Source: Armatimonadota bacterium (GTDB taxonomy: Bacteria > Armatimonadota > UBA10988). From it: a stretch of DNA of 64,000 nucleotides. A model generated the notes under the pieces. That model had not been told where the DNA came from and made no database searches. It worked only from the letters and a program-made list of their open reading frames with translations. Below are positions 2,839-25,961 of the stretch, in pieces. The position numbers were made by a program, and so were the translations under genes. Each line of letters starts with the position of its first letter. Positions within the stretch are counted from its first letter, which is position 1. The stretch spans positions 1 to 64,000 of the forward strand of contig JACRKZ010000085.1 in assembly GCA_016235455.1 (NCBI GenBank), read 5' to 3'.

Positions 2839-3630
2839 CTACCCCTCGTCATACCCCTTCAACTCGCGCACCCAGATGTTGCGATACCGAACGGGGTTGC
2901 CGTGGTCCTGGATATGGATCGGGCCCTTGACATCGTGCCGCTGGTACTGGGAAAGCGCACGGAACCGCATCGGACCCTTGGGCGCGGTATGGTTGTGCAC
3001 CACCACGCCATTGAACAGTACCGTGAAGTAGGCCGGCGTCTCCACCTCGTTGCCGGCCTCGCCCTTGAAGCGCGGCGCGGTCCACAGGATGTCGTAGCTA
3101 TTCCACTCGCCCGGCTTGCGGCAGACGTTGGCCAGCGGCGGGAACTGGCCGTAGATGGCGGCGGCCATGCCGTCGGCGTAGGTCTTGTTCTCGTAGCAGT
3201 CGAGCACCTGAATCTCGTAGTCGCCACAGAGGAAGACACCGCTGTTACCGCGGCCCTGGTCAGTGCCGTTGGGCGGGTTGGGCGAGGACCACTCCACGTG
3301 CAACTGGCAGTCGCCGAAGCTCTGCTTGGTCCAAGCATCGCCGCCGCCCACGGTCATGGCGCCATCGGCCACCTTGAAGGTGCAGGGCTTGCCGTCGCCG
3401 GCGCGCCAGGCGTCAGTGTTGGTGCCATCGAACAGCACCACGGCGTCCGACGGCGGTGCCACGGACACGGCCGGACCGGGCGTGACCACCGGCGGCTGCG
3501 GGCGAGTGCCGTCGTGCACGCGCCACTTGGAGCCGGGGTAGAAGGGCGTGTCGTCGTAGCCCAGCCCAATCACCACACCCGCGCCCAGCACGAGGCCCAG
3601 GCCCAGCAACACGCCGAAGCGCTTGGTCAT
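2839..3630 (-). CDS. DUF1080 (3-keto-glycoside hydrolase/lyase-like) secreted protein
   Basis: True start MTKRFGVLL with a signal peptide; motifs LFDG, FGDCQLHVEW, GNSGVF, YEIQVLD, GEWNSYDI, IQDHGNPVRYRNIW. The ORF track extension to 4674 is spurious. Confidence 0.85.
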   Translation of the reverse strand: MTKRFGVLLGLGLVLGAGVVIGLGYDDTPFYPGSKWRVHDGTRPQPPVVTPGPAVSVAPPSDAVVLFDGTNTDAWRAGDGKPCTFKVADGAMTVGGGDAWTKQSFGDCQLHVEWSSPNPPNGTDQGRGNSGVFLCGDYEIQVLDCYENKTYADGMAAAIYGQFPPLANVCRKPGEWNSYDILWTAPRFKGEAGNEVETPAYFTVLFNGVVVHNHTAPKGPMRFRALSQYQRHDVKGPIHIQDHGNPVRYRNIWVRELKGYDEG

Positions 3631-3632
3631 CA

Positions 3633-6449
3633 CTATCCTCCCGTCAGCAGCCCGGCCCAAGCCGTGCGCAGTTGCTGCAATTGCTTCTCTTCGTCGGCGC
3701 TGTAGCTGCCCTGCCGCTGGCCGTAGGTGTCGATCCAGGTGACCAGGGCATCGAGATCGGCGCCCGCCAGCTTCACGCCCTGATGCCCTTCCGGCGTCGC
3801 CAACAGCTTCATCAGTGCGCTGTTGCGGGCCTCGCCATCGCCCGGCAGCGAGCGGCCCGCGCCGTAGCGCGCCTTGACCTGGTCTCGCAGGCTGGGCCGG
3901 CCGTAGCCGAACAGCATGTCGTAGGACCGGGCCGCGGTCAGATCGACCGACGGCGACTTGCCGCCCGGCTGGTGGCAGGTCACGCAGAGCTTGTCCAGCA
4001 CCGGCTGCACCAGCTTGTCGTAGCGCAGCGGCCAGGAGCCTGCCGGCCCCGGCGTGATGCTCGACGGCCGGTGCCGCGTGGCCTGCGGGCGGCTGTTGGC
4101 CGGTGAGGTCTGGCGCGGCTCGTGGCAGCCGGCGCACGACTGCGTCTGGCCGGGCATGACGCTGGTCAGCGTGCGCATGGTGCGGATGGCCATGCCGTCG
4201 GCGTCGAGCGCTTGCAGGAAGACGCCTACGCCCGCCGGCGCGCGGAAGAAGGCCGAGCCGTCGGCCTCCACCGGCACGGTGCCCAGCACGCACTTGCCCG
4301 GATCGTCGGCGGTGCCGCCCAGGTTCGGCGTGTTCATGTTCGGCTGAGTCTTGATTGGCGTGGTCACCACGCGCAGCCGCTTGATGCTGCCCCGCGGCAC
4401 GTTGGGCATGCCATCGTAGGCGTTGAGCACCAGGAAATTGCCCTCCGGCGCGCCTGCCCAGTTGACGTGGCTGGTCAGGTCGGGTGGCGCGTGGCGCGCT
4501 TTGAGCGGCATCGGGTAGTTGCTGGAAATGGTCGCGTCGCGGTGGATCAGTTCCAGGTTGCCGAAGGCATCGTAGTAGTAGAGGCCGAAGCCGTTGACCG
4601 CGTTGCCGCCGCCCTGGCCGTTGAGCGCCTGGTTGCTCCAGGCGGTCAGGTAGTAACGCTCGGAGAGCGGCCACGGGTTGGCATAGAACGCCGCCGGCCA
4701 GCCCTGGACTTCGGGGTAGACCACCTCGGGCGTCAGCTTGGTCAGCGGCTCGGGACCATCGAGCCCCTTGGCCGGGTCGAGCATGACCAGGCTGCCGCCG
4801 GTGATGCTGTGGTGCGCCGTGGCGGTGAATACCATGCGGCGCGAGTTGGGGATGGAGCGCGCCTCAAACACGCCATGCAGGTGCGTGGTGTAGTTGCCAT
4901 AGACCGCCTGCACGTTGCTGCCGTCGGGATTGGCCGACCACAGGCCCATGTATGGCATGTTGTTGCGGTCGACATAGTCCCACCGGGCATAGAGGATGCG
5001 GCCGTCGTCGGCGATGCTCGGGGTCCACTCGAAGCTCTCGAACGGCGAGATCGGCTTGAGGTCGGTGCCATCGGGGTTGATCGTGTGCAGGGTGTAGATG
5101 GACACCGGCCGGTAGGCGTCGCCGCCGCAACGCACGTAGCTGTCGGGCAGCGTGCTGGTCAGGCTGGCCTGCGTCGTGCCGGGCAGGCACTGGGCGAACT
5201 GACTGCGCCGCGTGGACAGGAAGACAAGCTGGCCGTTGGGCAGGTAGCGCGAATCGAAGTCGTCGTAACGGCCATGGGTGATCTGGTGCAGGCCCGTGCC
5301 GTCGACGTTGATCTCGAACACGTGGTAGAAGCCGTCCTCAGGCAGCTTGTCCTTGTCCACCTTGTCCGGCCGCCCGGCCAGGTCGGGGTAGTACCGGCAC
5401 CAGGCGAAGGTGATCTTCTTGCCGTCCCACGACAGGTCGGGCGACATGACGCTGCCCGGCGGCAGGTCAGGCGTCAGGCTGCGCACCTGCGGCGCGCCGG
5501 ACTTGAGCCCGTCGAGCACGTAGAGCCCGCCACCAGGCCGTGACCACCAGCCGTAGTGCTGGTCCGACTGATGGCTGAACGAGCCCGGCGCGCGCTTGGC
5601 GAAGACGAGTTGGTCAAAGTCGAGCAGCGGATTGCTGAACGCCAGGTCGCGCACCACCCAGCGCGTCTCGAAGTACAGCGCCCGCTTCCCGGCGTCGTCC
5701 AGCGTCTCCCACTCCCGGTCGACCCGCTGGCCCAGGCTGTTGAGCTTGGCGGCGGCGGCCGCCGCGGCGGTCACACCGGCCGCGCTCAGGTCGCCGGCGA
5801 GCTTCGTGCCGCGCTCCAGCACGGTGCGCACGGGATAGCCAGCGGCCTTGGGCGCCAGATGCCGAACCGACCACTGGCTCAGGCTGCACTGGTCAGCCGG
5901 CATGCCCAGGGCGATATTGGTCTTGGGGTCGGCGGCGGCGTAGACCTCCACCTCATCGAGGTTGAAGTACTGCGTGCTGGGAACCTGGAAGCGCAGGTAC
6001 CGCGCGGACTGGCCCTTCAGGTCGATGTTCAGCGGCTTCTTGTCGTTGTAGCCATAGAACATCACGTCGTCGTGGCGGTAGACACGCTTCCAGGTCTTGC
6101 CGTCGTCGGAGCTGTAGGCCTCAAAAGCGCGGGTGCGGTCGGCGGTGCCGACCCGGTTGTAGACCAGGGCATGGTCCAACGCCACGGCCTGGCCGAGATC
6201 CACCTGCCACCAGGGATTGGCCTGGTTGTTGGTGTGGAATCCCCACTCGCCGTTGATCACGCCGTCGACGGCGCCGGCGGCGTCCTCGGCGGTGTTCATG
6301 GCCACCGCCGTTTGGCCGCGGAGCTTGTCTTGGGTCAGCCAGTCAGCCTCCACCTGCGCGCGGAACTCAGCCTGAGTAGCCGCCCAAGAGGGCAGCGCCA
6401 TCACGAGTACGACCAGCCACCGGACACGCATCGTCCGTCTCCCGATCAC
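3633..6449 (-). CDS. HzsA-like protein: signal peptide, F5/8-type C (discoidin) domain, TolB-like beta-propeller, hydrazine synthase alpha middle domain, two CxxCH haem motifs
   Basis: WWQVDLG...RYLRF (F5/8); PDLSWDG and DGRILYARWDYVDR (propeller); LGTVPVEADGSAFFRAP...FLQALDADG; CAGCH and CVTCH. Alternative start ATG 6431. Confidence 0.8.
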   Translation of the reverse strand: MIGRRTMRVRWLVVLVMALPSWAATQAEFRAQVEADWLTQDKLRGQTAVAMNTAEDAAGAVDGVINGEWGFHTNNQANPWWQVDLGQAVALDHALVYNRVGTADRTRAFEAYSSDDGKTWKRVYRHDDVMFYGYNDKKPLNIDLKGQSARYLRFQVPSTQYFNLDEVEVYAAADPKTNIALGMPADQCSLSQWSVRHLAPKAAGYPVRTVLERGTKLAGDLSAAGVTAAAAAAAKLNSLGQRVDREWETLDDAGKRALYFETRWVVRDLAFSNPLLDFDQLVFAKRAPGSFSHQSDQHYGWWSRPGGGLYVLDGLKSGAPQVRSLTPDLPPGSVMSPDLSWDGKKITFAWCRYYPDLAGRPDKVDKDKLPEDGFYHVFEINVDGTGLHQITHGRYDDFDSRYLPNGQLVFLSTRRSQFAQCLPGTTQASLTSTLPDSYVRCGGDAYRPVSIYTLHTINPDGTDLKPISPFESFEWTPSIADDGRILYARWDYVDRNNMPYMGLWSANPDGSNVQAVYGNYTTHLHGVFEARSIPNSRRMVFTATAHHSITGGSLVMLDPAKGLDGPEPLTKLTPEVVYPEVQGWPAAFYANPWPLSERYYLTAWSNQALNGQGGGNAVNGFGLYYYDAFGNLELIHRDATISSNYPMPLKARHAPPDLTSHVNWAGAPEGNFLVLNAYDGMPNVPRGSIKRLRVVTTPIKTQPNMNTPNLGGTADDPGKCVLGTVPVEADGSAFFRAPAGVGVFLQALDADGMAIRTMRTLTSVMPGQTQSCAGCHEPRQTSPANSRPQATRHRPSSITPGPAGSWPLRYDKLVQPVLDKLCVTCHQPGGKSPSVDLTAARSYDMLFGYGRPSLRDQVKARYGAGRSLPGDGEARNSALMKLLATPEGHQGVKLAGADLDALVTWIDTYGQRQGSYSADEEKQLQQLRTAWAGLLTGG

Positions 6450-8177
6450 AATGATCGCAGATACGCCAGTAGGGCGTCGATCTCCTCCGGCCGCAGATGG
6501 GCCGTATGTCCGTGCCGCTCGCCACGGTTACGCGTGGTCAGCACGTCGCGCAGCGACACTGCCGAACCGTCATGCAGGTACGGCGCCGTGCGCCACAACT
6601 CGCTTGCGGCCCGCCGCCGCCACCGGCGCCAGCCGGCCACCCACCAGGTACGGGCTCGGCTCGGGCACCAGCGACCGCAGGTAGGCCTGCACGTCGGCCA
6701 GGTCGCCCGGCTCGGGCTGCCGGAACAGGATGTATTTGAACCCCGCCTCGGCGGCGACCTCCATGTCGGCGCGCACCCCGTGGGCCATGCTCGGCGGCGT
6801 CCTGGCCGACCAGACCAACGACTTGGTCGACTTCGGGTTGCCGATACCGTCGTTGAGCAGGTCCCAGTTGAGCCCGTCGGCACGCGCGTTGGGGTGGCAA
6901 CTCGCGCAGCTCAGCCAGCCCTGGAAGCTCTGGCGGCCGTCATGGAACAACCGCTCGCCGCGTCGCTCGGCCGTGTCCTTGGCCGGCGCGCCGCGCAGGA
7001 CCGAGTACGGGCCCTGCAGCGACGAGCCGCCCGCGGCCACCATGCCGCTGAAGGCATTGGCCAGGGCCAACTGTCCCTGGCTGGACACGGCGACCGTGCG
7101 CCAGCCCGCTTCGCCCGGGCCGGACCGCGAGATGGCCTCGGCCTGCACCAGCGCGGCCAGGTCGTTGACCAGTTCCATGCGCCGCTCGGGCTGCTCGGCG
7201 ATGCCCAGCCACAGGTTGCGGCTGGTGATGGCGTACTCGCCCGACAACCTGGCTGCCGCCCAATCGGTCGGCAGCTTGCCCGCCAACAGCGGATGCAGGC
7301 GGGCCAGATCGACCCGCGCCAGTTGGCCAATGCCGGACAGGACCACCCAGAGCGTCTGGCCATCGCCCGACAGCGCCATGCCCCAGGGGTCGGCCGCGCC
7401 GCGGGTCGGCTCGTCGAGCAGGAAGGTGGTGTACAGCCGGCGCTCGGCCAGGTCGATGATGCTGACCGCATTGGTGCTCACCCAGCCGCGGTCGAGTTGC
7501 GTGGGCAGCAGATTGTAGCGACCGACCAGGTGCGCCACGTAGGCCCACCGGCCGTCGGGCGAGATGCACACCGAGCGCGCCGCGGTGGCGCCGGCCGGCA
7601 GCTTGACAGTCGCTGCCGCGGCGCCGCTGGGCAGATCGACGAGTTGCACCGCGACGGCGTTGTCTTCGGTGGTCGCGTCGCCGCCGGGCAGCAGCGGTAC
7701 TACCACCGCCAGCGACTCGTCGGGCGTCACGGCCACGGCTTCGGGTTGCCCGGCTACCGCCAGGCTGCCGTGCGGCTGGCCGTCGCTCAGGCCGGTGAGA
7801 GACAATCCCTCCAGGTTGCACGCCAGAAGCAGGCCATGTTTGGGCGCCAGGGCCAGGCCCTGCGGCCGCGGACCGACCGCCCAGCGTCGCAAGCCCCGGC
7901 CGGTGGCTGCGTCGAACAGGCCCACCGTGCCGCCCAGCACATCGGCCACCCAGAGCCGATCGCCACGCAGCACCAGGCCGCTGGGTCGGGGCAGCTTGAC
8001 CTGTCGCGCATCACGACCGGAACGGTAGTCAACCCAGTGCAGCAGGTTGTCACCGTGGTCGGCCACCACGAACTGAGCGCCGTCCGCGGTGAAGGCCAAA
8101 GCCTGGGGCCGCGGCGAGGCACAGACCACCGCGGCGGCCAGTAGACCTGACAGCGCCACCAGACAACGCTTGGGCAC
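6446..8177 (-). pseudogene. YVTN/YncE beta-propeller fused to a cytochrome c peroxidase/MauG-like domain, disrupted near 6602
   Basis: GTG 8177 with GGGGAG RBS; propeller repeats; LSCASCHP, NPKSTKSL. The frame ends at 6570, while the conserved tail ELWRTAPYLHDG...LLAYLRSL continues in another frame to 6446; the expected second CxxCH is absent. Confidence 0.7.
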
Positions 8178-8311
8178 GCGACACTCCCCTACCCGGCTCG
8201 CGCGAGCCGGCTGATGGGTACTGACGATCATTGAGCGGTGCATGTTTCGCACATTCCCAGGGAATGACAGGAGCCCTGCCCGACGCGGACAATGTTTGCG
8301 TGGAGACCGTC

Positions 8312-10057
8312 ATGGGTGAGCTAGGCCGGCCGAACGTGATCCTGCTGCTGACCGACGACCAGGGGCCCGGCGACCTGGGATGCGCGGGCAACCCGGTGCT
8401 GCGCACGCCGCATCTGGACCGCCTGCACGGTGAGTCGGTGCGGCTGACCGACTACCATGTCGGCCCGACCTGCGCCCCAACCCGGGCCGGGCTGATGACC
8501 GGGCACTGGGCCAACTCGACTGGCGTCTGGCACACCATCGGCGGCCGCTCGCTGCTGCGCCGTGGCGAATGGACCCTGGCCCAGGCGTTGGGCGAGGCCG
8601 GCTACGCCACAGGCATCTTCGGCAAGTGGCATCTGGGCGACACGTATCCCTATCGGCCCGGCGATCGCGGTTTCGCCACCAGCGTGGTGCATGGCGGCGG
8701 CGGCATCAGCCAGACGCCCGACCACTGGGGCAACGACTACTTCGACGACACCTACCAGGTCGACGGCCAGCCGCAAGCCTTCTCGGGCTACTGCACAGAC
8801 GTCTTCTTCGACTGCGCGATGGGCTTTGTCGAGGCGCACCGCGACCAGCCGTTCTTCTGCTATCTACCCACCAACGCGCCACATGGGCCGTTCAATGTCG
8901 AGCCGGCCTACCGCGAGCCGTACGACGGCCTGGTGCCCGACGAGCGCGCGCGGTTCTACGGCATGGTCACCTGCATCGACGCCAACCTGGGCCGGCTGCG
9001 CGCGCGGCTCGACGCGCTGGGCCTGGCCGAGAACACGATTCTGATGTTCATGACGGACAACGGCACGGCCGGCGGTTGTCAGCTCGATCACGACGGATTC
9101 GTCACCGACGGCTACAATGCCGGGCTGCGCGGCGTCAAGGGCTGGCCGTATGACGGCGGCCACCGCACGCCCTGCTGGTGGCACTGGCCGGCGGGCGGAC
9201 TGACCGACGGACGCGATGTCGACCAGGTCACGGCCAACGTCGACATCATGCCCACGCTGCTGGACCTGTGCGGCGCCGCGGCGCCCGCCGAGCACGCCTT
9301 CCACGGTGTCAGCCTGGCCCCGCTCTTGCGCCGCGAGCGGGTCGACTGGCCCGACCGAGCCGTGGTCACCGACTCGCAGCGGCTGACCGAGCCGGTCAAG
9401 TGGCGACAGAGCGCGGTCTGCACCGAGAGCTGGCGGTTGGTCAACGGCGTGGAACTGTACGACGCCCGCGCCGACCGCGGCCAACGGTGCGACGTGGCCG
9501 CGGCCCGCCCCGACGTGGTCGCGGCCTTGCGGGGCGAATACGAGCGCTGGTGGGAGCTGGTCTCGGGACAGTTCGCCGAGGAGGTGCCGACCGTGCTCGG
9601 CCCGACGCCCGAGGTCACGCTGACCTGCCACGACTGGCGCAACGAGCAGTGCGACTGCCCGTGGAACCAGAGCCACATCCGCGCCGGCCAGCGCAGCGAA
9701 GGCTACTGGGAGGTGGACGTCGCCCAGGCCGGCGACTACACCGTCGAGCTGCGCCGCTGGCCCGCCGAGGCCGGGCACGCCCTGCGCGCGGGCCTTGACG
9801 GCGACGACGTGACCTGGCGCCGCGACGCAGTGTCCGAGCGCGACTGGGGCCACTACACCGGCGGCACGGCACTGGCCATCAGCCGGGCGCGCTTCGAGCT
9901 GGGCGAGGTGGCGGCGCAGACCGAGGTCGGCGGGCATGACCCGGCGGCGGTCATGCGCGTGACCTTGCCGGCCGGGCCGGGGCATCTGCAGGCCTGGTTC
10001 GAGGGCGACGATGGGTTGCGGCTGGGCGCCTACTACGTCGTGGTGCGGAAGGCCTGA
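8312..10057 (+). CDS. Arylsulfatase (Cys-type, formylglycine-dependent)
   Basis: RPNVILLLTDDQG, CAPTRAGLMTG, GKWHLG, TDNG; no clear signal peptide. Confidence 0.9.
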   Translation: MGELGRPNVILLLTDDQGPGDLGCAGNPVLRTPHLDRLHGESVRLTDYHVGPTCAPTRAGLMTGHWANSTGVWHTIGGRSLLRRGEWTLAQALGEAGYATGIFGKWHLGDTYPYRPGDRGFATSVVHGGGGISQTPDHWGNDYFDDTYQVDGQPQAFSGYCTDVFFDCAMGFVEAHRDQPFFCYLPTNAPHGPFNVEPAYREPYDGLVPDERARFYGMVTCIDANLGRLRARLDALGLAENTILMFMTDNGTAGGCQLDHDGFVTDGYNAGLRGVKGWPYDGGHRTPCWWHWPAGGLTDGRDVDQVTANVDIMPTLLDLCGAAAPAEHAFHGVSLAPLLRRERVDWPDRAVVTDSQRLTEPVKWRQSAVCTESWRLVNGVELYDARADRGQRCDVAAARPDVVAALRGEYERWWELVSGQFAEEVPTVLGPTPEVTLTCHDWRNEQCDCPWNQSHIRAGQRSEGYWEVDVAQAGDYTVELRRWPAEAGHALRAGLDGDDVTWRRDAVSERDWGHYTGGTALAISRARFELGEVAAQTEVGGHDPAAVMRVTLPAGPGHLQAWFEGDDGLRLGAYYVVVRKA

Positions 10058-10072: not shown

Positions 10073-11350
10073 TCAGTCGAGCACGACCAGGTAGGTGTCG
10101 CTCGGCTCGAGCACCAGCTCGCAGCGCGCAGCGTTGTGCAGGGCGGCGATGGGGGTCAGGCCATCTTGGACGTCATACACCGTCGCGTTGGCGAAGGCGC
10201 GCGAGAACTCGACGGTGACCGGCACCTCGTGGGCCGTGTCATTCATCAACTGCTCCGACCAGAGGGCCACCACGAACTCGCCGGTCGGCTTGGCCAGGAG
10301 CAGGTGGCTGACTTCCTTGCCCGCCACGGCGATGGGCAGCACGCCCGGCGTGAAGGTGGGCTTGGCGCCGGGGCCGTAGCAACCGCTTTTGCTGGCCAGC
10401 AGCGTGGTCAGCGTGTGGAAGAACCGCGCCGACGGGTGCGCGATGCCGCCGGGGAAGGTGTAGAAGCCGTAGGTTGCCTCGGGCTTGCTGTCTTGCAGGC
10501 CGTAGACCAGATAGCCCACATCGCCCGCCGCGGCGCTGTCCAGGGCGCCCATGACCAGATACTGCCCGTAGACCCGCGGGCTGAGCCGGGCGCTGTAGTA
10601 GCCGCCGACCTCGGTGTGCGCCACGGGCTTGCCCAGCGTGCACAGGCGCGCGTTGGCACGCATCATGTTGATGATGCTCGCCGGCCGCTGCGCCGGATCC
10701 GACAGGTACGTGTGAGCAGCGGCGAAATCGGCCGGACCGGGGGTGTAGTTCTGTTTGCTGCCGGTGTTGGTCGGGTTGTAGTTGCCCTGCCAGCCGTTGG
10801 CGGCGGTCCAGCCGGCGCCGAACTCCATCTGGCTGACCAGCAGGCCGAGTGGGTGCGCCCAGTCGTAGAGCTGCCGCTGCACCAGCGCAGCGTCGGGCAG
10901 CGTGGCGCCGAGCTTCTGAGCGTACTCGTCATCCTCTTCGTTGGGCCCGCCGACGGCGTACAGCAGGCCCGGCAGGTCGCGCGCCAGCGCCTGCGTCAGG
11001 GCCAGGCTGTCGCGCTGGTCCTTGGTGCTGCCCTCGGCGATGGACGTCCAGAACCGACCGTCAAGCCGCCAGGCGGCGTGCAGCGCGCGTACGCGCTCCA
11101 GGTCGCGCGGGCTGACCATCCAGTCTCGCACCAGCCGCACCCCCAGATAGCGCAGTTGCTCGCCGATCTGTGTGGTGTCGGTGTTCCAAGGGTCGTCGCG
11201 GGTCAGGCCACCCAGGTGGGTGTTGACGCCCAGCGTGTTCAGGAACGCCTCGCTGGACATGGCCGGTTCGGCGGCCAACCTCGCCATCACACACAGTCCA
11301 ACCGTCGCCCCCAGCAGCCAATGTCGCCTCACGTCGCGTGCTCCCGGCAT
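10073..11350 (-). CDS. Secreted clan GH-A-like glycoside hydrolase, family uncertain
   Basis: Hydrophobic N-terminus; LGVNTHL, GPNEED (acid/base-like), HTEVG (nucleophile-like); start uncertain. Confidence 0.55.
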   Translation of the reverse strand: MPGARDVRRHWLLGATVGLCVMARLAAEPAMSSEAFLNTLGVNTHLGGLTRDDPWNTDTTQIGEQLRYLGVRLVRDWMVSPRDLERVRALHAAWRLDGRFWTSIAEGSTKDQRDSLALTQALARDLPGLLYAVGGPNEEDDEYAQKLGATLPDAALVQRQLYDWAHPLGLLVSQMEFGAGWTAANGWQGNYNPTNTGSKQNYTPGPADFAAAHTYLSDPAQRPASIINMMRANARLCTLGKPVAHTEVGGYYSARLSPRVYGQYLVMGALDSAAAGDVGYLVYGLQDSKPEATYGFYTFPGGIAHPSARFFHTLTTLLASKSGCYGPGAKPTFTPGVLPIAVAGKEVSHLLLAKPTGEFVVALWSEQLMNDTAHEVPVTVEFSRAFANATVYDVQDGLTPIAALHNAARCELVLEPSDTYLVVLD

Positions 11351-11420
11351 CGATAGACGCCGCGATGGGCCGAAAGGTCCCCCGCCGCGGGGGTCGAACA
11401 GACCGCTCGGAGACCTGACC

Positions 11421-13961
11421 ATGTCCTGGTTGGCCGCACCGCTGCTCCTGGGAGGACTGCTCATGGCCGAAAGCGCGCCACCGCCGCCGCAAGCGCCGTA
11501 CCTGAACACGTGGCTCATCTCGGCGCCGTTTGCCACCACCGCCGTGGCCACGCGCGAGGCGCTGGCGGAGGCCGACTGGACCCCGCGGCCCGGCGAGCGC
11601 TGGAGTTGGTTCGATGATCGCCTCTTCTCCCGCAACTACGACAACTACCAGGACCTGTTCAGCTACCTGCGCTATCACCAGGCCCAGACCGCGGCCGGCC
11701 AGGCCGTCTATGCGCATGTCTACCTGCATGTGCCGGCCGGCGTCGCCGCCGAACTGCGGCTGGGCGTGGACCGCGACGTGCGAGTCTGGCTCAACCAGCA
11801 GCCCGTGCCGACCGGCGAGCAGAAGGGCTACCTGCGCGACAGCATCCGCGTGCCGGTGACGCTGTCCGCCGGCTGGAACCGGCTCATGCTGCGCATCAGC
11901 AACGCCGCCGCAGGCCGGCTGGGGTTCTATGCGCGCGTCTGCGGAGCCGATGGCGTCGTCGTGCCCGGCCTGACCGCCTCGCCCCTCGGCCCGCTGGCCA
12001 AGCTCCAGGTGGCCACGCAAGGCATGGGCGATGTCAGCTTGCAGCCGCTGCCCACGGCCTGGCGCGAGTGGCCCTATGTCGCCGCCGACGCCGTGCGCGA
12101 TGCCCGCCTGGAGATGGGGGCCTTCGTCCGGCACAAGCCGCAACTGGCCATGAACGCCTCACCGTTTCAGCTCACCGCCGGTGGTGGCACGCCGCCGTAC
12201 ACCTGGGCCGTGGCCGAGGGCAAACTGCCCGACGGACTCACGCTGGCGCCCGACGGCACGATCCTGGGCACGGTCTCGGCCAAGGCCGAACTGGGGCAGC
12301 GCGATGTGACCGTGGCGGTGACCGACGGCGCCGGCGCGACGGCCAAGGCGCCACTCTGGCTGACCGTGGCCGAGCGGCCCAACAAGTGGTACGAGGACAT
12401 GCGCCTCGTGGCGCTGATCCACAATCCCGAGAGCCTGCTGCAGGGCGCCGACGAGAAGACGGCGCTACCCGAGTTCGCCAAGCTGATGCGCCGCCAGGGC
12501 TATGGCCTGGGCATGATGATCAGCTACAACAACGGCGAGCACAAGTACCGCTTCCCCAACCAGTTCGACGCCAACGCGCCGGACCTGGCCGCCAAGTACA
12601 GCGCCGCGCTGCGCGCCGAAGGCATGCGCTTCGGCATGTACATGGGCAACCTGAACGGCGACAACCACGGCGGCCAGCAGGGCGCCATGCTCATGGTCGA
12701 GGAGGCCATGAAGCGCTACGACCCGGCCGCGTTGTGGTTTGACTGGGCCAGCGCCGATCCCGATGGCTACGAGCAACTCGACGCGCTGTACTCGATGATC
12801 CGTTCGCTCAACCCGGACACGCTCATCGTGCTCAACGGCATCACCACCAGCTATCACGGCGATTGGGACGTCGTCTGTCTCGAGGGCTGGGGTGCCTGGG
12901 GCGACAAGATGTGGGGCCTGTGGCCGTTCGACATCGACTGGCCCAAGAAGCCCGTGCTGGAGAGCTGGCGGATGCTGGCCGACCCCGGCTTCGACTTCAG
13001 CCGGGGCGTCTCGCCCGACCCGCGCGAGTACCTGCGCGTGCAACTCAGCCTGATCCTGGAGGGCTATGTGGCCAACATCGACCACAGCCCGACCATCCGC
13101 ACGGCCTGGAAGAAGCTCTCCGACTCGCCCGTGGCGCGGGCCCACGAAGAGATGGCCAAGTGGGCCAATCCGCCTGGCCTGCCCAGCCTGACCACGGCCT
13201 ACACCCTGGTCAAACCCGCTCCGGTGAGTGTCGGCCGCTGGGGCTATGCGGCCCAGAGCCTCGATGGCCGTACGCTGTACCTGCACATCATGACCAACGC
13301 GCGCGGCAAGACCGGGCTGCCCAAGGATGGGCGCATCAGCCTGAGCGGCGTGTCGCCCAAGGTCACTGCCGCGAGCTGCCTCAATGTGGGCCGGGCGGTG
13401 CGCTTCTTCCAGCAGAAGGACGAACTGACGCTGAACCTGGCCGACATCACGCCCGACGCCGTCGACACCATCGTGCGCGTCAGCCTGGCCGCGCCGCTGC
13501 CCGACCGGCCGCGCCCGGCCGAGCGCGTCGAACCCGTGCCGGCGGGCAATCTGGCCACCGGCAAGCCGGCACGCCTGCTGAGCACCGACGGCCAGCGCGA
13601 GCTGGTGCCCAGCGCGTTCTCGTTCGCGCGGTTCGGCGTCGACGGCCTGCCGTCGACCGTGGCGCAAGGTGCCTACGAGTGGGCTTGGGCCTTCGAGGTC
13701 GACCTGACGCGAGCGGAGCCGGTCAAGCGCGTGGTGGTGCACTTCCCCGCGGGCGGCTGGGCCACGGAGTACGAGGTGCTGCTCTCGGCCGACGGCACCA
13801 CCTGGCGCAGCGTGGCCCACCTCAAGGACGCCGTCTCGGGCCGGCATGAGCATGCCGCCGACGGCACGCCCGCGCGCTTCGTGCGCATCAAAGCCATCAA
13901 GCCCGACGGGCCAGGCCAGCCCGGCAGTCAGATGGCCATCAGCGAACTGGAGGTGTACTGA
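11421..13961 (+). CDS. Secreted alpha-L-fucosidase-like (GH29-like) protein with a putative Ig domain and C-terminal F5/8-type C domain
   Basis: ATG 11421 with GGAG RBS; GGTPPYTW...GKLPDGLTL (Ig-like); GMRFGMY, ALWFDW (GH29-like nucleophile context); C-terminal VDL...ARFVRI...ISELEVY. Confidence 0.65.
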   Translation: MSWLAAPLLLGGLLMAESAPPPPQAPYLNTWLISAPFATTAVATREALAEADWTPRPGERWSWFDDRLFSRNYDNYQDLFSYLRYHQAQTAAGQAVYAHVYLHVPAGVAAELRLGVDRDVRVWLNQQPVPTGEQKGYLRDSIRVPVTLSAGWNRLMLRISNAAAGRLGFYARVCGADGVVVPGLTASPLGPLAKLQVATQGMGDVSLQPLPTAWREWPYVAADAVRDARLEMGAFVRHKPQLAMNASPFQLTAGGGTPPYTWAVAEGKLPDGLTLAPDGTILGTVSAKAELGQRDVTVAVTDGAGATAKAPLWLTVAERPNKWYEDMRLVALIHNPESLLQGADEKTALPEFAKLMRRQGYGLGMMISYNNGEHKYRFPNQFDANAPDLAAKYSAALRAEGMRFGMYMGNLNGDNHGGQQGAMLMVEEAMKRYDPAALWFDWASADPDGYEQLDALYSMIRSLNPDTLIVLNGITTSYHGDWDVVCLEGWGAWGDKMWGLWPFDIDWPKKPVLESWRMLADPGFDFSRGVSPDPREYLRVQLSLILEGYVANIDHSPTIRTAWKKLSDSPVARAHEEMAKWANPPGLPSLTTAYTLVKPAPVSVGRWGYAAQSLDGRTLYLHIMTNARGKTGLPKDGRISLSGVSPKVTAASCLNVGRAVRFFQQKDELTLNLADITPDAVDTIVRVSLAAPLPDRPRPAERVEPVPAGNLATGKPARLLSTDGQRELVPSAFSFARFGVDGLPSTVAQGAYEWAWAFEVDLTRAEPVKRVVVHFPAGGWATEYEVLLSADGTTWRSVAHLKDAVSGRHEHAADGTPARFVRIKAIKPDGPGQPGSQMAISELEVY

Positions 13962-20447: not shown

Positions 20448-20478
20448 GAGTTCCTGCCTGCCCGGCGAATGCAGCGAT

Positions 20479-20596
20479 GTTCGTAGTTCGGCCCAGAGGC
20501 CAATGGCGATTCCACACCAGATCGGCGCCGCCAGCGGCGCGGTGGACTGCCACCGCCGTGTGGGATCGCCATTCGCCCAAGACCGAAACTACGAAC
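20479..20596. repeat. REPIN/MITE-like 118-bp inverted-repeat element with GTAG ends
   Basis: GTTCGTAGTTCGG...CCGAAACTACGAAC outer arms; AATGGCGATTCCACAC (20502-20517) / GTGTGGGATCGCCATT (20558-20573) inner arms. Confidence 0.65.
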
Positions 20597-20614
20597 CCTG
20601 AGCGGAGGAAGGCA

Positions 20615-22633
20615 ATGCTGACATTTCGACTGGCGACGTTGTGCCTGGCCGGGGCGCTCCTGGGGGCAGGAGAGGCCGAGGCACAACCGCACCGGGCCAT
20701 GACCCTGACCGAGGCGCTGTCGCCGTATGTCGGCCCGGTGGTCAAGGGCGTCGACACCACGACCGTCGACGGCAAGGTCATGGCCGGCTACCAGGGCTGG
20801 TTCATGGCCAAGGGCGACGGCTATGAGCCGGGCTGGGTGCACTGGGGCGGTGTCGACCAGAACCCGCCGCGGGCCAGCTTCGACCTGTGGCCCGACATGA
20901 CGGAGCTACCGCCGAGCGAGCGCTTCGCCAGCGGGTATCGCTATGCCGACGGCACGCGCGGCGAACTGTTCAGCTCCACGGTCAAGGAGACCGTGCTGCG
21001 CCACTTCGAATGGATGAAGCAGTACGGCATCGACGGCGTCTGGGTGCAGCGCTTCACCAGCTGCGTGAGCAACCAGAACGACTGGAACTATCTGCGCACG
21101 ACGGCCGTGCTGAGCCATTGCCGCGAGGGCGCCAACCGCACTGGCCGTGCCTTTGCCGTGATGTACGACACCGACTTCGACCGCCGCGCCATCGACGCCA
21201 TGAAGTCCGACTGGACGCGGCTGGTGCGCGAGATGAAGCTGCTCGACACGCCTGCCTACATCAAGCATCGCGGCGGCCCGGTCATCGCGCTGTGGGGCTA
21301 CGGCTTCGACCATCGCAAGTTCGACCCGGTGGCCACGCGCGAGTTCTTCGAATGGCTGAAGAAGCCGGAGAACGGCGCCTGCACCATCATGCTGGGCATC
21401 CCCAACGACTGGGTCGGCTGGACCGACGAGCGTATGACGCTGCTGCGACAGTACGGCCAGATCATCAGCCCCTGGAACGTCGGCCGTTACGGCACGCTGG
21501 ACGGCGCGAGCGCCCATGCCAAGCGCTACTGGCCGGCCGATCTGGCGTTCTGCAGGGCGAACGACAAGGACTACTACGCAGTGGCCTTCCCCGGCTTCTC
21601 GTGGACCAACCTGATGAAGGGCAACAGCCCGCTCAACCAGATCCCGCGCCAAGGCGGGCGGTTCCTCTGGCGGCAGATCGAGGAGATCCGCCGGTACGGC
21701 ATGAAGATGGTCTACATCGCCATGTTCGACGAAGTCGACGAGGGCACGGCAGTCTTCAAGGTCACCAACCAGCCGCCGCAGGGCCGGTTCGGCACCTACG
21801 AGGGCCTGCCCAGCGACCACTACCTCAGACTGTGCGGCCTGGCCGGCCGCTATCTACGCGGCGAGGACGTGACCTTCCCCGAGGTCCAGCCGGACCCGGC
21901 GCAGATGACCTATCGGCCGATCCCGCAGTTGGCCTACTACCAGCAGCCGAGCCGGTTCTTGCAAGCCACGCGTGACCGCTGGAAGCAACTGCTCGACGGC
22001 GTGCCCATCGTGCTGCATGACGAGCCTTACAGCGAGTGGATCAGCGACCTCTACAACGCTGGCTCGCTGGACATGCGGCTGTCGACCTGGGCTGACATCC
22101 TGGCCAAGCCCGACGCGTCAAAGCTGATGGTCTTCGCCGCGGGCAACGAGAGCTTCGGCGCGCCGGACGCACAGGTGCCGGCGATCGTCGAACGCGCCAG
22201 GCAGCACTTGCGCGGCGGCGGCGTGGTGCTGGTCGCGGGCGGTGGCGGCTATCCGCTGTTCTACCCCGGCGGCAGCACCGAAGCGGCCAAGTTCGGCTTC
22301 CGGCTGCAGATGGTCAACAGCCCCGCGGGCAGCCGCGTGAAGTTCGACCCGGCCCTGGGCACCGACGTTCCGGCGTTCCAGCTCAAGAGCGCTGGCAGCT
22401 CGCGCCTGATGCGAAAGACACAGTACCCGGGAGCGCCGCGTTACGTGTCTCTGGCGCGCGTGGACCTGCCCGACGGCACGGCCAACGGTGATGCGCTGGC
22501 GGCGGTGCAGCCGGGCGGAGACCTGGGCCAGGGCTGGATCGTCTATGTGGCGGCCGACCTGCTGCAGTGCCCCGACCGCGAGACACTGCTCGACGCGCTG
22601 CTCAACTGGCTCCGGCCGCGGCTCAACGGCTGA
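20615..22633 (+). CDS. Secreted GH71/GH99-like glycoside hydrolase with a C-terminal extra domain
   Basis: ATG 20615 with GGAGG RBS; KVMAGYQGWF, DLWPDMTE, HFEWMKQYGIDGVWVQRF, FPGFSWTN, YIAMFDEVDEGT. Confidence 0.8.
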   Translation: MLTFRLATLCLAGALLGAGEAEAQPHRAMTLTEALSPYVGPVVKGVDTTTVDGKVMAGYQGWFMAKGDGYEPGWVHWGGVDQNPPRASFDLWPDMTELPPSERFASGYRYADGTRGELFSSTVKETVLRHFEWMKQYGIDGVWVQRFTSCVSNQNDWNYLRTTAVLSHCREGANRTGRAFAVMYDTDFDRRAIDAMKSDWTRLVREMKLLDTPAYIKHRGGPVIALWGYGFDHRKFDPVATREFFEWLKKPENGACTIMLGIPNDWVGWTDERMTLLRQYGQIISPWNVGRYGTLDGASAHAKRYWPADLAFCRANDKDYYAVAFPGFSWTNLMKGNSPLNQIPRQGGRFLWRQIEEIRRYGMKMVYIAMFDEVDEGTAVFKVTNQPPQGRFGTYEGLPSDHYLRLCGLAGRYLRGEDVTFPEVQPDPAQMTYRPIPQLAYYQQPSRFLQATRDRWKQLLDGVPIVLHDEPYSEWISDLYNAGSLDMRLSTWADILAKPDASKLMVFAAGNESFGAPDAQVPAIVERARQHLRGGGVVLVAGGGGYPLFYPGGSTEAAKFGFRLQMVNSPAGSRVKFDPALGTDVPAFQLKSAGSSRLMRKTQYPGAPRYVSLARVDLPDGTANGDALAAVQPGGDLGQGWIVYVAADLLQCPDRETLLDALLNWLRPRLNG

Positions 22634-22646
22634 TAAGGACCTATCC

Positions 22647-25600
22647 ATGACCAATTGTCTGCGTTTGGCGGCCTGCCTGTTGTTGGCCGTGTCGGCTGGA
22701 TCTGCCGAGCAACTCGTGGTGCGCGACCTGCTGACGGGCACCGCGCCGAACTGGGCCGCCGGCCCGTGGGACACGGCGCCGAGCCGTTCGTCCGCCACCA
22801 ATGACCGCCCGGCCGGCGCTGCCGGCCCGGCGGTGGAACTGACCGTGGCCTACACCGGCGGCGGGTTCGAGCATGTCACGCTGGCGCCGCCGTTCGGGCC
22901 GATCCCTGGTCGCATCCGGCGGCTCAGCGTGTGGGCCAAGGCGCTGGCCGCCGACTACGCCTGGATCGTCTCGTTCCAGGACGCCGAAGGCAAGGACACC
23001 GTCGGTGGCAAGAAGCTCGAATGGGGCCTGCGCACCGTGCCCAGCCAATGGGTCAAGTTGGACTTCACCGTACCCGCCGACTGGCCGCAGCCGCTGAAGC
23101 TGGCCGGCTTGACCGGCCACAACTGGGAGAAGCAGAATGCCAAGGCCGAGGCGTCGGTGCGGCTGGCCGGCTTCACGGTAGAGACCGACATCGACGGCAT
23201 CACCGACCCGGCCAAGCTGGTCAGCCTGAGCGCGACCACCGGTGTGCCCAGCAACCTGTTCCAGCCCGACGCGCCCGTGCGCTACACCGTGGTCTGCGAT
23301 AGCTGGCTGGGCAAGGAGCTTAGTGGCACCCTCGCCTACGAACTGCGCGACGCCGAGGGCAAGGTGGTCGGCAGCGAGTCCCGCCCGCTGGCCATGCGCG
23401 ACACGCAGACGGTGCCGCTGGACCTCAAGCCGCCGGGCTTTGGCGCCTACCGACTGCGTCTCTCGGCCAAACTGGGCGACGTCAGCTTCGAGCGGCAGAG
23501 CCGCTTCGCCTACACGCCGGCTCCACCCAAACAGACCTGGGAGCAGAAGGTCGCCGGCCCGTACGGCCTGAACATCCACGGCGGGCTGGCCGGGATCGAC
23601 TACCGTGGCATCGCGCGCATGGGCTTCACGTGGGTCCGCGACTACGCGTATAGCTTCGAGTGGATGACCCGCGCGCGCGGCGCTGACAGCCGGTATGCCG
23701 GCTGGCCCTACTACAACAAGCTCGACGCCGCGGTGCAGGACGCCGGCCTGGTGCTGCTGCCGTGCCTCATGGGTGGCATCGGCCAGCCGGTCAAGGGCGG
23801 GAGACTGGCGCCGGACAAGGCGTGGCGCTCGGACATTCTGCCCATCTTGCTGCGCTTCCCGCAGTATGTGGCCTGGGAGCTGGACAACGAGTACGACTAC
23901 CACAGCGGCCGCGAGGAGGAAGCACGAGGCTGGTCGAGCTACGATGCCTACCATCGTGGGTTCGCCCAGGTGCTCAAGGTGGTCGATGACAAGACGCTGG
24001 CCGTGGCCCAAGGCCAGGCCGGCGTCCATCCCGACTGGGTGCGCCGCAGCGTGGCCAACCACAGCTTCGACCAGATCGATGTGGTCAACGCGCATGTCTA
24101 CACCGGCACCAAGCCGCCCGAGATCGTCACCGAGAACGCCAACGTCGGCCAGGAAGGCGAGGCACCCGGCCTGCTGTACGACGTGTTCCGGGACTTCGTG
24201 TCGGCCTCGCGGTCCGATGGCAAGCAGCGCCAGACCTGGCTGACCGAGTTCGGCTGGGACACGCTGGCGGGCTACATCGTCAACGAGAAGGAGCAGGCAG
24301 CCTACCTGCAGCGCGGCTATGCGCTGGGCCTGCAGGCCGGGCTGGACAAGATGTTCTGGTACTGGCAGCGCGATACTAAGGACAAGCCGAAGCAGTACTT
24401 CGACGGCTGCGGCCTGCTGGACCCGGCCGACGAGCCCAAGCCCGCCGCCGCCGCCATCGCAGCGCTGACCGCCTTCCTGCCCCATCCAACGCCGGTGGGC
24501 CGCTGCGCCCCGGCGCCGGGCGCCATGGGCCATGTGTTCCGGTCCGCCGACCAGATCGTGGCCATGGTCTTCCGCGTCGAGCCCGAGGCCGCCGCGCCGA
24601 CCGTCGACCTGCCCAACGGCAAGCTCTTCGATATGTGGGGCAACCCGCTGACCGAGCGCCGCCAGAAGCTGGACATCACGCCGGTGTGGATTGTCGGCCT
24701 GCCCGAAACAGACGCGCTGTACCGACAGGCCGCCTACGACCTGGCCACGCCGGGCTTCATGCGCGTCACCGCGGGCGATCCCTTGACCATCGAGACCAAG
24801 GTGACCAACAACCGCACGACGGCCCTGGCTGCGACGCTGGCGGTGAACGCGCCGAAGGGCTGGACGGCTACCGCCGCGCCAGCGGTGTCGCTCGCGCCGG
24901 GCGCCACCCAGACCGCGCCGGTGACCGTCACCATCGACCCGCGCGAGCCGGCCGGACAGAGCGCGGTGATGATCGACATCACCGAGAACGGCTTGAAGCA
25001 CCGCCTGACCACGCTGGTCGAGGTGGCGGCCGCGGCCAACCTGAGCGTGTCGCCGTTGAGCGGCGCGCCCGGCGCGGCCAAGGTCGAAGTCGCCGTGCGC
25101 AACAACCGCCGCCGGCCGGCCAGCTTCGAGCTGACCTCGGTGCTGCCCGCCAACTGGAAGATAGAGCCGGCGAAGGCCACCGTGGCCGATATCGCGCCCG
25201 GTGCCACGGCCAAGACGACCTTCACCGTGACCTGGACGCCGAGTTGGACCACCGGTGAGCAGGCGTTGATCAAGGTGGCCACGCCCGAGGGGCAGGTGGT
25301 CTCGAGCGCCGGTCTGCGGCCGGGCACGCTGAGCATCCCGCGGGTGGATGCGCCCAAGCTCGACGGTAATCCAGCGGGCTGGCCGGCGGCTGCCAAGCTG
25401 CCCGACTGGGCCATGGGCCGCGTCGGCAGCGGCACCAAGGGCGATGTCTGGCTGGGCTGGACGCCCGACGGGCTGTGGGTGGCCTGCCGGGTCGACCCGT
25501 CGCCGGTCACGGTGACCGATCCGCGCGCCTTCTGGGCGCAAGACTGCCTGGAGTTGTTCGTCGATACGGCCAACAGCAAGGCCGAGCGGGCCAAGTATGT

Positions 25601-25937
25601 GCCGGGCGACCACCAGTTCTGGCTCTGCCCGCTGGTCGGCGAGAAGCGCGCCTACCTGGGCCAGTGGCAGCGCGGTACGGAGATCGAGGCCACGCACTGG
25701 GACATCCAGGGCATCCGTAGCTTCGCGGGCCGGTCGGGCGGCGGGTACGTGATGGAGGCGCTCATTCCGGCGGCGCAGATCAAGGGCTTTGCCGGCCAGG
25801 CTGGCCGCAAGCTGGGCCTTTGCGCGAACCTGTCGGTGCCGGGCGACACGGGTCGTGGCGAGCTGTACTGGCCGCTGGACAAGGCCGGCGGCGTGGCTGA
25901 GAAGCCGGCGCTGTGGGGTACGGTGGAGCTGCGCTAG
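22647..25937 (+). CDS. Secreted multidomain GH39-like (clan GH-A) protein with NEW3-like and CBM9-like domains
   Basis: ATG 22647 with AAGGA RBS; WELDNEYD, WLTEFGWD, MFWY; APKGWT (NEW3-like); PKLDG...W...DCLELFVD...YVMEALIP (CBM9-like). Confidence 0.7.
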   Translation: MTNCLRLAACLLLAVSAGSAEQLVVRDLLTGTAPNWAAGPWDTAPSRSSATNDRPAGAAGPAVELTVAYTGGGFEHVTLAPPFGPIPGRIRRLSVWAKALAADYAWIVSFQDAEGKDTVGGKKLEWGLRTVPSQWVKLDFTVPADWPQPLKLAGLTGHNWEKQNAKAEASVRLAGFTVETDIDGITDPAKLVSLSATTGVPSNLFQPDAPVRYTVVCDSWLGKELSGTLAYELRDAEGKVVGSESRPLAMRDTQTVPLDLKPPGFGAYRLRLSAKLGDVSFERQSRFAYTPAPPKQTWEQKVAGPYGLNIHGGLAGIDYRGIARMGFTWVRDYAYSFEWMTRARGADSRYAGWPYYNKLDAAVQDAGLVLLPCLMGGIGQPVKGGRLAPDKAWRSDILPILLRFPQYVAWELDNEYDYHSGREEEARGWSSYDAYHRGFAQVLKVVDDKTLAVAQGQAGVHPDWVRRSVANHSFDQIDVVNAHVYTGTKPPEIVTENANVGQEGEAPGLLYDVFRDFVSASRSDGKQRQTWLTEFGWDTLAGYIVNEKEQAAYLQRGYALGLQAGLDKMFWYWQRDTKDKPKQYFDGCGLLDPADEPKPAAAAIAALTAFLPHPTPVGRCAPAPGAMGHVFRSADQIVAMVFRVEPEAAAPTVDLPNGKLFDMWGNPLTERRQKLDITPVWIVGLPETDALYRQAAYDLATPGFMRVTAGDPLTIETKVTNNRTTALAATLAVNAPKGWTATAAPAVSLAPGATQTAPVTVTIDPREPAGQSAVMIDITENGLKHRLTTLVEVAAAANLSVSPLSGAPGAAKVEVAVRNNRRRPASFELTSVLPANWKIEPAKATVADIAPGATAKTTFTVTWTPSWTTGEQALIKVATPEGQVVSSAGLRPGTLSIPRVDAPKLDGNPAGWPAAAKLPDWAMGRVGSGTKGDVWLGWTPDGLWVACRVDPSPVTVTDPRAFWAQDCLELFVDTANSKAERAKYVPGDHQFWLCPLVGEKRAYLGQWQRGTEIEATHWDIQGIRSFAGRSGGGYVMEALIPAAQIKGFAGQAGRKLGLCANLSVPGDTGRGELYWPLDKAGGVAEKPALWGTVELR

Positions 25938-25961
25938 GCGTTGAGCATGGAGCGTGAACGC

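Follow-up and report, generated by a model that had tools for sequence, protein, structure and literature searches.

The stretch analysed here, referred to as the window, comprises the first 64,000 nucleotides (nt) of contig JACRKZ010000085.1 (GenBank assembly GCA_016235455.1), from an Armatimonadota bacterium. Near its start three open reading frames (ORFs) lie head to tail on the minus strand, in DNA of ~70% G+C and all with coding-type codon bias. They encode a fused protein resembling subunits beta and gamma of hydrazine synthase (HZS), a HzsA-like protein resembling its alpha subunit, and a DUF1080 protein (Table 1). ORF calls together with Pfam and PDB matches bear out the three genes that a sequence-only reading of this DNA had placed here. 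That reading had also described the genes as tightly packed. The gap between the alpha-like stop and the DUF1080 start, positions 3631-3632, is exactly 2 nt as it said, but the GTGA overlap that it saw at 6446-6449 is present only if the alpha-like gene starts at GTG. The ATG at 6431 is probably the likelier start, because GGGAG lies ~8 nt upstream of it and it leaves a 14-nt spacer, like the spacers of 13-16 nt in two orthologous loci. The beta-gamma-like gene may begin further upstream, as far out as 8252. Since just 2 nt separate them, the alpha-like and DUF1080 genes are likely co-transcribed. The encoded proteins have signal-peptide-like N-termini, as judged by eye alone.

The alpha-like protein consists of an N-terminal F5/8 type C domain, a three-helix linker, a beta-propeller, a middle domain of the HZS_alpha family (PF18582) and a C-terminal cytochrome c-like domain, with two CxxCH motifs. 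Pfam, the structure model and the motif positions agree on this layout, which had been proposed from the letters for all but the linker and the C-terminal cytochrome domain. An AlphaFold model of the protein was obtained with a pLDDT of 92.8 and a pTM of 0.88. Its best PDB match in Foldseek was the alpha chain of hydrazine synthase, 5c2v_A (E 1.6e-26, target-normalised TM 0.60, 822 columns), followed by TolB at E 2.9e-11. A profile built from 66 alpha-like proteins matched 5c2v_A at E 2.7e-38, and the match takes in parts of the propeller along with the middle and C-terminal haem domains. PD40 repeats are weak in Pfam; in the propeller, W504, W490, C441 and H546/H547 are invariant or almost so. 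The second CxxCH is invariant in four orthologs, and the F5/8C domain is kept in three. The top PDB matches of this N-terminal domain are F-type lectin domains (E 1.4e-9). In a control search, a Bacteroides thetaiotaomicron gene also matched PF18582.

The beta-gamma-like protein starts with a putative signal peptide, which is followed by a 7-bladed YVTN/NHL-type propeller and a di-haem domain like those of cytochrome c peroxidase (CCP) and MauG. The product of 6570-8177 matched the HZS beta chain 5c2v_B over residues 21-297 (E 1e-14) and the gamma chain 5c2v_C over residues 395-469 (E 7.5e-8), which upholds the propeller-CCP/MauG fusion described earlier, in a gene that is frameshifted in the assembly. 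A profile of five beta-gamma proteins raised these matches to 1e-46 for 5c2v_C and 7e-41 for 5c2v_B, while the best peroxidase reached only 4.7e-12. For the intact ortholog in genome G004, 63% identical to the window protein, the model had a pLDDT of 87.7 and Foldseek returned 5c2v_B at the top (target-normalised TM 0.85). The CCP_MauG Pfam domain was detected in this ortholog at 35.4 bits against 25.6, together with a RoxA-like cytochrome c piece. Models of MbnH (1.9e-12) and MauG (7.4e-9) likewise pick up the gamma domain.

Table 1. Features of the three-gene locus, with two possible minimal pairs from other genomes (window positions unless a genome and contig are named).
Feature	Position	Strand	Remarks
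DUF1080 / 3-keto-disaccharide-hydrolase-family gene	2839-3630	(-)	263 amino acids (aa); starts 2 nt past the alpha stop
HzsA-like (alpha-like) gene	3633-6449	(-)	938 aa from GTG 6449; 932 aa from ATG 6431
Beta-gamma-like gene	6446-8177	(-)	two frames as assembled: 6570-8177 and 6446-~6604
F5/8 type C / F-type-lectin-like N-terminal domain, alpha-like	5976-6290	(-)	residues 54-158; Pfam F5_F8_type_C 60.9 bits, cut-off 28.2
Three-helix linker, alpha-like	5640-5831	(-)	residues 207-270, ahead of the propeller; model secondary structure
TolB/PD40-like beta-propeller, alpha-like	4425-5612	(-)	~residues 280-675; model secondary structure, TolB matches in Foldseek and profile search
HZS_alpha middle domain PF18582, alpha-like	4119-4391	(-)	residues 687-777; E 2.6e-22; ends in CxxCH no. 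1
CxxCH no. 1 (CAGCH), alpha-like	4122-4136	(-)	residues 772-776
CxxCH no. 2 (CVTCH), alpha-like	3972-3986	(-)	residues 822-826, C-terminal cytochrome c-like domain
First CxxCH (CASCH), beta-gamma-like	6894-6908	(-)	lines up with HZS gamma's first haem motif
Junction lacking ~131 nt in the assembly	6602-6604	(-)	alignment to five intact homologues; Logan contigs
Possible minimal versions of the system	G008:C29:26697-28561; G054:C13:3687-7276		minimal pairs

As assembled, the beta-gamma-like gene changes frame near 6603, and its C-terminal stretch 'ELWRTAPYLHDGS...LRSL' sits in the other frame (6446-~6604). The second CxxCH is found in no frame of the assembled gene. Aligned with five intact homologues (three orthologs, the paralog of the same genome on contig C169 and one G004 paralog), the window copy lacks the ~43-44 residues that hold this motif. 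All 53 further homologues, drawn from 80 fetched loci after 27 near-duplicates or truncated matches had been removed by hand, have two CxxCH motifs and no stop. Logan contigs from two sequencing runs, X1 (5,596 nt, depth 9.5) and X2 (20,022 nt, depth 31), contain 128 extra letters at the junction, separating window 5900-6604 from 6602-7300; with the 3-nt overlap this makes 131 nt, or 44 codons less one base, exactly the length that the orthologs predict. Judged by this length and by the homologues, the stretch would encode ~44 codons including the second CxxCH. A 410-nt contig of run X4, from a second study, diverges from the window at 6604, and no contig among those listed from four runs spans the short junction of the window. 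The contigs show that the long form is present and not that a deleted minor variant is absent. Runs X1 and X2 come from a single study, and the sample behind them may be the very one that yielded the window. A 42-nt stretch beside the gap had no match in the metagenome-contig scan. Because independent contigs of two runs hold 131 extra nt at this place, the frameshift most likely reflects a fault of assembly or else a minor variant. Given the 131 nt missing here, other collapsed stretches are possible in this genome assembly.

By profile and predicted fold, the alpha-like and beta-gamma-like proteins are true but distant relatives of the hydrazine synthase subunits (PDB 5C2V). Single-sequence matches to the HZS chains were modest, and the profiles were decisive. 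Compared with the enzyme of Kuenenia stuttgartiensis (HzsA, HzsB and HzsC), the alpha-like protein has the same order of parts, from a propeller through a middle domain ending in a CxxCH to a C-terminal haem domain; a 7-bladed beta propeller and a di-haem CCP/MauG-like gamma domain are likewise present, and the genes are adjacent. Beta and gamma are fused, as they are in Scalindua HzsBC. The HZS-like architecture proposed from the letters thus reappeared in profile and structure searches alike. The likeness is remote in sequence, with only 16-19% identity to the HZS chains in the Foldseek alignments. Unlike hydrazine synthase, the window alpha-like protein is extended by a lectin-type domain at its N-terminus and by a helical linker, its genome holds 26 alpha paralogs for two beta-gamma genes, and its organism is a glycan degrader in which no close hydrazine dehydrogenase was found. 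The gamma-like domain shares its two CxxCH motifs and the CCP_MauG domain with bacterial di-haem cytochrome c peroxidase, MauG, MbnH and BthA, but the window protein is fused to a propeller and its family lies far closer to HZS gamma, as the profile E values above indicate.

On sequence grounds we conclude that this pair is not an anammox hydrazine synthase, because the NCBI hydrazine-synthase models are not reached and the tyrosine ligand is absent. The equivalog NF052339 (hydrazine_alpha) scored 33.8 bits against a cut-off of 800, over residues 721-777 only, and NF052342 (hydrazine_BC) scored 104.5 bits against a cut-off of 1250 on the intact G004 ortholog. The alpha haem ligand of hydrazine synthase is alphaTyr591, four residues past the histidine of the first alpha CxxCH (PMC12758564). 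At this place the window protein reads CAGCHEPRQTSP (CAGCHEPRQ at the first CxxCH) and the consensus of 66 alpha-like relatives is CxGCHEPR. Hydrazine synthase also has a third covalent cysteine link to haem gamma-I, from gammaCys165 (PMC12758564). In the HMMER alignment the sole cysteine of 5c2v_C between its haem motifs, which may be gammaCys165, sits in a loop opposite a gap of the family profile. In the genome searched, 6.5 Mb and 93% complete, no close hydrazine dehydrogenase was found. It does contain two ORFs of the octahaem HAO family (PF13447, eight CxxCH each), on other contigs and not near the locus, at C174 ~24725-26731 (-) and C6 ~12209-13756 (-). Their best PDB match is 4qo5, a 'hypothetical multiheme protein' (E 1.6e-44 and 7.4e-120, respectively), and they match hydrazine dehydrogenase 6hif only at E 7.7e-16 and 4.5e-8, over ~80 residues. 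The earlier expectation that hdh and hao genes would be absent therefore stood for a close hydrazine dehydrogenase and not for the HAO family as a whole, while its view that the system is not one of anammox agrees with all three lines, the failed equivalog models, the missing tyrosine and the missing dehydrogenase, on which anammox potential was rejected. Three contigs labelled Brocadiaceae, Kuenenia stuttgartiensis and Brocadiia (L038, L068 and L077) carry a beta-gamma-like gene of non-HZS type, 41-47% identical to the query, with no alpha-like gene within the fetched flanks; the gene is either one more paralog of the anammox bacteria or the product of faulty binning.

The beta-gamma/alpha pair is a conserved two-gene module, widespread across phyla. 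The same gene order, beta-gamma then alpha, is found in G004 (~63% and ~72% identity), G002 (~50% and ~58%) and G007 (~48% and ~58%). A scan of one genome per species returned at least 577 beta-gamma-like loci, and among those with names are Chthonomonadales, Planctomycetota, Verrucomicrobiota, Anaerolineales, Polyangiaceae, Acidobacteria and Bacteroidetes. Neighbours were counted at the best 80 of these. An alpha-like gene is adjacent on the same strand in 39 of the 80, downstream in 24 and upstream in 15; nine more have one within 10 kb that is not adjacent, and 32 have none, 16 of these with short flanks. Ten loci (that of the window and nine others) have a close alpha relative; only the beta-gamma and alpha-like genes recur in them, and no third gene is common to three or more of the ten. 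Genome by genome, alpha-like genes occur in eight of the 41 genomes of the window's phylum set, and none of the eight is without a beta-gamma-like gene. Distant propeller-CCP fusions are present in three or four of the 33 remaining genomes. In a second set, 31 genomes around a Verrucomicrobia genome, 12 have alpha-like genes, numbering 1-34 per genome. Strong matches to beta-gamma, at E 5.5e-66 or better, were found in 11 of these 12 and in none of the 19 other genomes, with one or two full-length beta-gamma genes where the contigs allow and contig-edge pieces only in two genomes. The smallest genomes with the system, G008 and G054 at 2.1 Mb each, have one alpha-like gene adjoining one beta-gamma-like gene (Table 1).

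The window genome is rich in alpha-like genes, with 26 ORFs bearing an HZS_alpha domain and just two beta-gamma genes, that of the locus and an intact paralog at C169:42709-44571. All 26 have a CxxCH ~60-100 residues past the start of the HZS_alpha domain; 25 have a second one ~50 residues further on, and six a third. Most begin with a signal-peptide-like stretch by a crude hydrophobicity rule. Tandem pairs of alpha-like genes lie, for example, at C151:70294-77195 and C59:6582-12596. In single genomes the alpha-like genes number up to 35, against one or two beta-gamma genes. The family as a whole is large: at E<=0.001 the window protein matches 8,540 representative clusters, and at E<=1e-30 it matches 1,576.

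Many of the paralogs also carry carbohydrate-binding-type modules, which indirectly suggests a link between the alpha-like proteins and glycans. By Pfam, the modules of lectin/CBM type among the 26 are Laminin_G_3 (five paralogs), F5/8C (three), NPCBM (two) and CBM-like (one); other accessory domains are FGE-sulfatase (four), DUF7402 (three) and Bac_rhamnosid_N (one). The FGE-sulfatase-matching members are ~1,350-1,390 aa long and are most likely the four longest, with long C-terminal extensions. For the window protein itself, glycan binding by the N-terminal domain is plausible from its residues. F-type lectins bind fucose through the motif HX24RXDX4(R/K) (PMC5712786). Residues H72, R99 and R105 of the alpha-like protein align with the basic triad of this motif; compared with Anguilla agglutinin (1k12), H72 and R99 are spaced as His52 and Arg79 are, and R105 falls on the final basic position. 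The domain shares the fold family of the F-type lectins (1k12 and Sm-hPAF, 4gwi), but the residue two past R99 is glycine, so the aspartate of the motif is missing. Galactose oxidase, in which a lectin-type domain likewise precedes a propeller, was among the Foldseek matches of the alpha-like model, at an rmsd of 19-24, so that the likeness holds at the domain level only. Among the literature matches listed, no paper tied hydrazine synthase to polysaccharide use or to Armatimonadota, and such a link may still exist in print.

The surroundings of the locus are glycan-degradation genes, which encode a sulfatase, a GH97 enzyme, beta-helix proteins and CBM proteins. The sulfatase gene (PF00884, E 1.1e-47) lies at 8231-10057 (+), divergent from the beta-gamma gene, and the start regions of the two are within ~55 nt of each other or overlap, depending on the starts chosen. 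A sulfatase neighbour is not common to three or more of the ten related loci. Two ORFs amid the sulfatase, beta-helix, F5/8C and GH97 genes, at 10073-11635 (-) (520 aa) and 20477-22633 (+) (718 aa), have coding-type codon bias and no Pfam match at E<=1e-4.

The DUF1080 gene is a local neighbour and no conserved part of this unit. Its protein is a clear member of the family, with a score of 144.3 bits for Pfam 3keto-disac_hyd (PF06439; cut-off 26.8) and a match to PDB 4qhz at E 4e-62. Against the 3-keto-disaccharide hydrolase or glycosyl hydrolase entries 8rr2, 8tda, 8v31 and 9fbe its matches were no better than E 5e-5 to 6e-4; within PF06439 it falls in the uncharacterised branch of 4qhz, and activity on 3-keto-glycosides is putative. 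Of the 80 beta-gamma loci, one has a DUF1080 gene nearby, ~6.4 kb off and on the opposite strand, and none lies downstream of the alpha gene in five orthologous loci with 3.4-7 kb of room. The window genome has 21 DUF1080 genes beside its 26 alpha-like genes, and the window pair alone is directly adjacent, two further DUF1080 genes lying 3.2 and 6.4 kb from alpha-like genes on C134 and C35. On these three counts (1/80, 0/5 and 1/26) DUF1080 was rejected as a conserved partner, and with it falls the coupling to a DUF1080 enzyme that the sequence-only reading had proposed; of the neighbourhood that it expected to be conserved, the beta-gamma/alpha pair held across phyla and the third gene did not.

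Our preferred reading, to which we give a probability of about 0.55, is that two exported c-type haem proteins of the same stock as anammox hydrazine synthase work together in a reaction other than hydrazine synthesis. The alpha-like and beta-gamma-like proteins would act jointly in the periplasm or on the surface of the cell, with the low-copy beta-gamma protein as a subunit that the alpha-like proteins share or as their redox or peroxide-handling partner. The haem beside the alpha middle domain may be the alpha-side centre of reaction or electron transfer, and the lectin-type domain may anchor the window alpha-like protein on a glycan. The DUF1080 gene would be co-transcribed through a local accident of gene order and would stand outside the mechanism.

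Several observations weigh against this reading. Of the alpha-like genes of the window genome, 25 of 26 have no adjoining beta-gamma gene, and the second beta-gamma gene, on C169, has no alpha-like gene within ~6 kb. At 16 of the 80 beta-gamma loci, each of the 16 with at least 4 kb on both sides, no alpha-like gene is nearby. Genome G051, listed without quality figures, has three alpha-like genes and no beta-gamma match, and G031, G018 and G026 carry distant propeller-CCP fusions without alpha-like genes. The co-occurrence counts overstate their support because related genomes are not independent, and they are indicative only. At the junction, the letters of the 131 nt were never read, so that a second CxxCH there is deduced, and X1 and X2 are a single study. 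The glycan link is based on accessory domains alone; in the window protein the fucose motif is partly kept with its aspartate absent, and fucose binding is therefore unproven.

Other explanations of the pair differ in what the beta-gamma protein would do. It might be a maturase of the MauG/MbnH kind that oxidises residues of the alpha-like proteins to form a protein-derived cofactor or a metal site, one or two copies serving dozens of clients. Both MauG and MbnH have as their substrate a protein whose gene is close by. The one or two beta-gamma genes against up to 34-35 alpha-like genes, the near-obligate co-occurrence, the matches of the gamma domain to the MbnH and MauG models and the near-invariant Trp, Cys and His-His of the alpha-like propeller would all fit such a role, but the closest solved relatives, HZS beta and gamma, are stoichiometric subunits that score far above the MauG-type enzymes, and no modified residue is known; we regard a maturase as unlikely. 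A pair that carries out nitrogen-oxide chemistry resembling the half-reactions of hydrazine synthase, such as reduction or detoxification of NO or hydroxylamine with no hydrazine made, appears still less probable. In hydrazine synthase the gamma haem reduces NO and the alpha haem handles hydroxylamine (10.64898/2026.02.25.707902), and homology to that enzyme, with two octahaem HAO-family genes elsewhere in the genome, is what speaks for this chemistry here. Set against it are the 26 paralogs of a glycan-degrading organism, with their modules of lectin/CBM type and FGE type, the absent Tyr ligand and the gap in the family profile at the Cys-bearing gamma loop, as well as the octahaem genes themselves, which lie on other contigs and are nearest to 4qo5, with only the short matches to 6hif given above.

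The two remaining alternatives concern the locus as it stands. If its three genes formed one unit, the haem complex might move electrons for 3-keto-glycoside chemistry with the DUF1080 enzyme; the 2-nt gap with likely co-transcription, the placing of both the alpha-like and DUF1080 genes inside a glycan-degradation neighbourhood and the two more distant DUF1080 genes on C134 and C35 can be read that way. With 21 and 26 genes in 6.5 Mb, however, chance predicts ~1.2 DUF1080/alpha-like pairs within 7 kb, against three seen, the window enzyme is distant from the solved entries of 3-keto-disaccharide hydrolase type, and the lack of conservation, with a DUF1080 gene near 1/80 beta-gamma loci, on the other strand, and at 0/5 orthologous loci, largely refutes the unit, which makes this account very improbable. 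The beta-gamma gene could also be a true pseudogene, its alpha-like neighbour relying on the intact C169 copy or on none. The assembled gene is out of frame and lacks 131 nt with the second CxxCH, and a replacement is at hand in the same genome. The X1 and X2 contigs nevertheless hold the extra 131 nt, at depths of 9.5 and 31, no contig listed from the four runs spans the short junction, and the flanking sequence has no other decay, so that we find a pseudogene doubtful. As a long shot, joint action of the two proteins could be pictured in a more specific form, in which one activating enzyme, the beta-gamma protein, would be shared by a very large exported HzsA-like family and, in the manner of MauG or MbnH, would install a protein-derived cofactor in the propeller of each alpha-like protein; the alpha-like proteins would then be lectin-guided glycan oxidoreductases of quinohaemoprotein type, and hydrazine synthase an offshoot whose maturase became a permanent subunit.

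Such pairs are not new. The sequence-only reading had singled out the locus as the best candidate for an undescribed system, but hzs-like alpha genes paired with fused beta-gamma genes outside anammox are described in two papers. A 2023 paper in FEMS Microbiol Lett reported hzsA-like genes next to fused hzsBC-like genes and suggested a broader family with other substrates (PMC10732223), and Hagglund et al. (2025) sorted co-localised pairs outside anammox into clades I-IV, in which the key residues of hydrazine synthase are not conserved, and named no function in the parts of the paper covered here (PMC12758564). The published examples come from Planctomycetota, Desulfobacterota, Opitutus, Paludibaculum and KSB1 (PMC10732223, PMC12758564); a word search of PMC12758564 gave no occurrence of 'Armatimonad' or 'carbohydrate'. 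Like those pairs, the window genes are co-localised and the alpha-like protein has, besides its haem motifs, both a propeller and the HZS_alpha middle domain (PMC12758564). The published beta-gamma proteins are fused with two haem motifs; the window copy as assembled shows one motif and a 131-nt gap, and its orthologs and the 53 further homologues have two. None of ten neighbour genes scanned had an FG-GAP/CRTAC1 Pfam match. In this the window pair differs from clades I-III, which have such a gene beside them, and is like clade IV, with neither an FG-GAP/CRTAC1 nor an ABC-transporter neighbour. Lectin-type fusion, copy-number asymmetry and genome-level co-occurrence were not found in the parts of the published accounts covered.

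The window locus thus belongs to a kind already known but unsolved in function, and is not exceptional among hundreds like it. What it adds is a pair in an Armatimonadota genome, modular alpha-like proteins with lectin/CBM-type heads, and their near-rule co-occurrence with one or two propeller/di-haem genes. The non-anammox relatives of hydrazine synthase are one of the larger exported haem-protein families without a known function, and the copy-number asymmetry and the lectin/CBM modularity described here are useful leads, of which the asymmetry could help to reveal the function of this family and the origin of hydrazine synthase.

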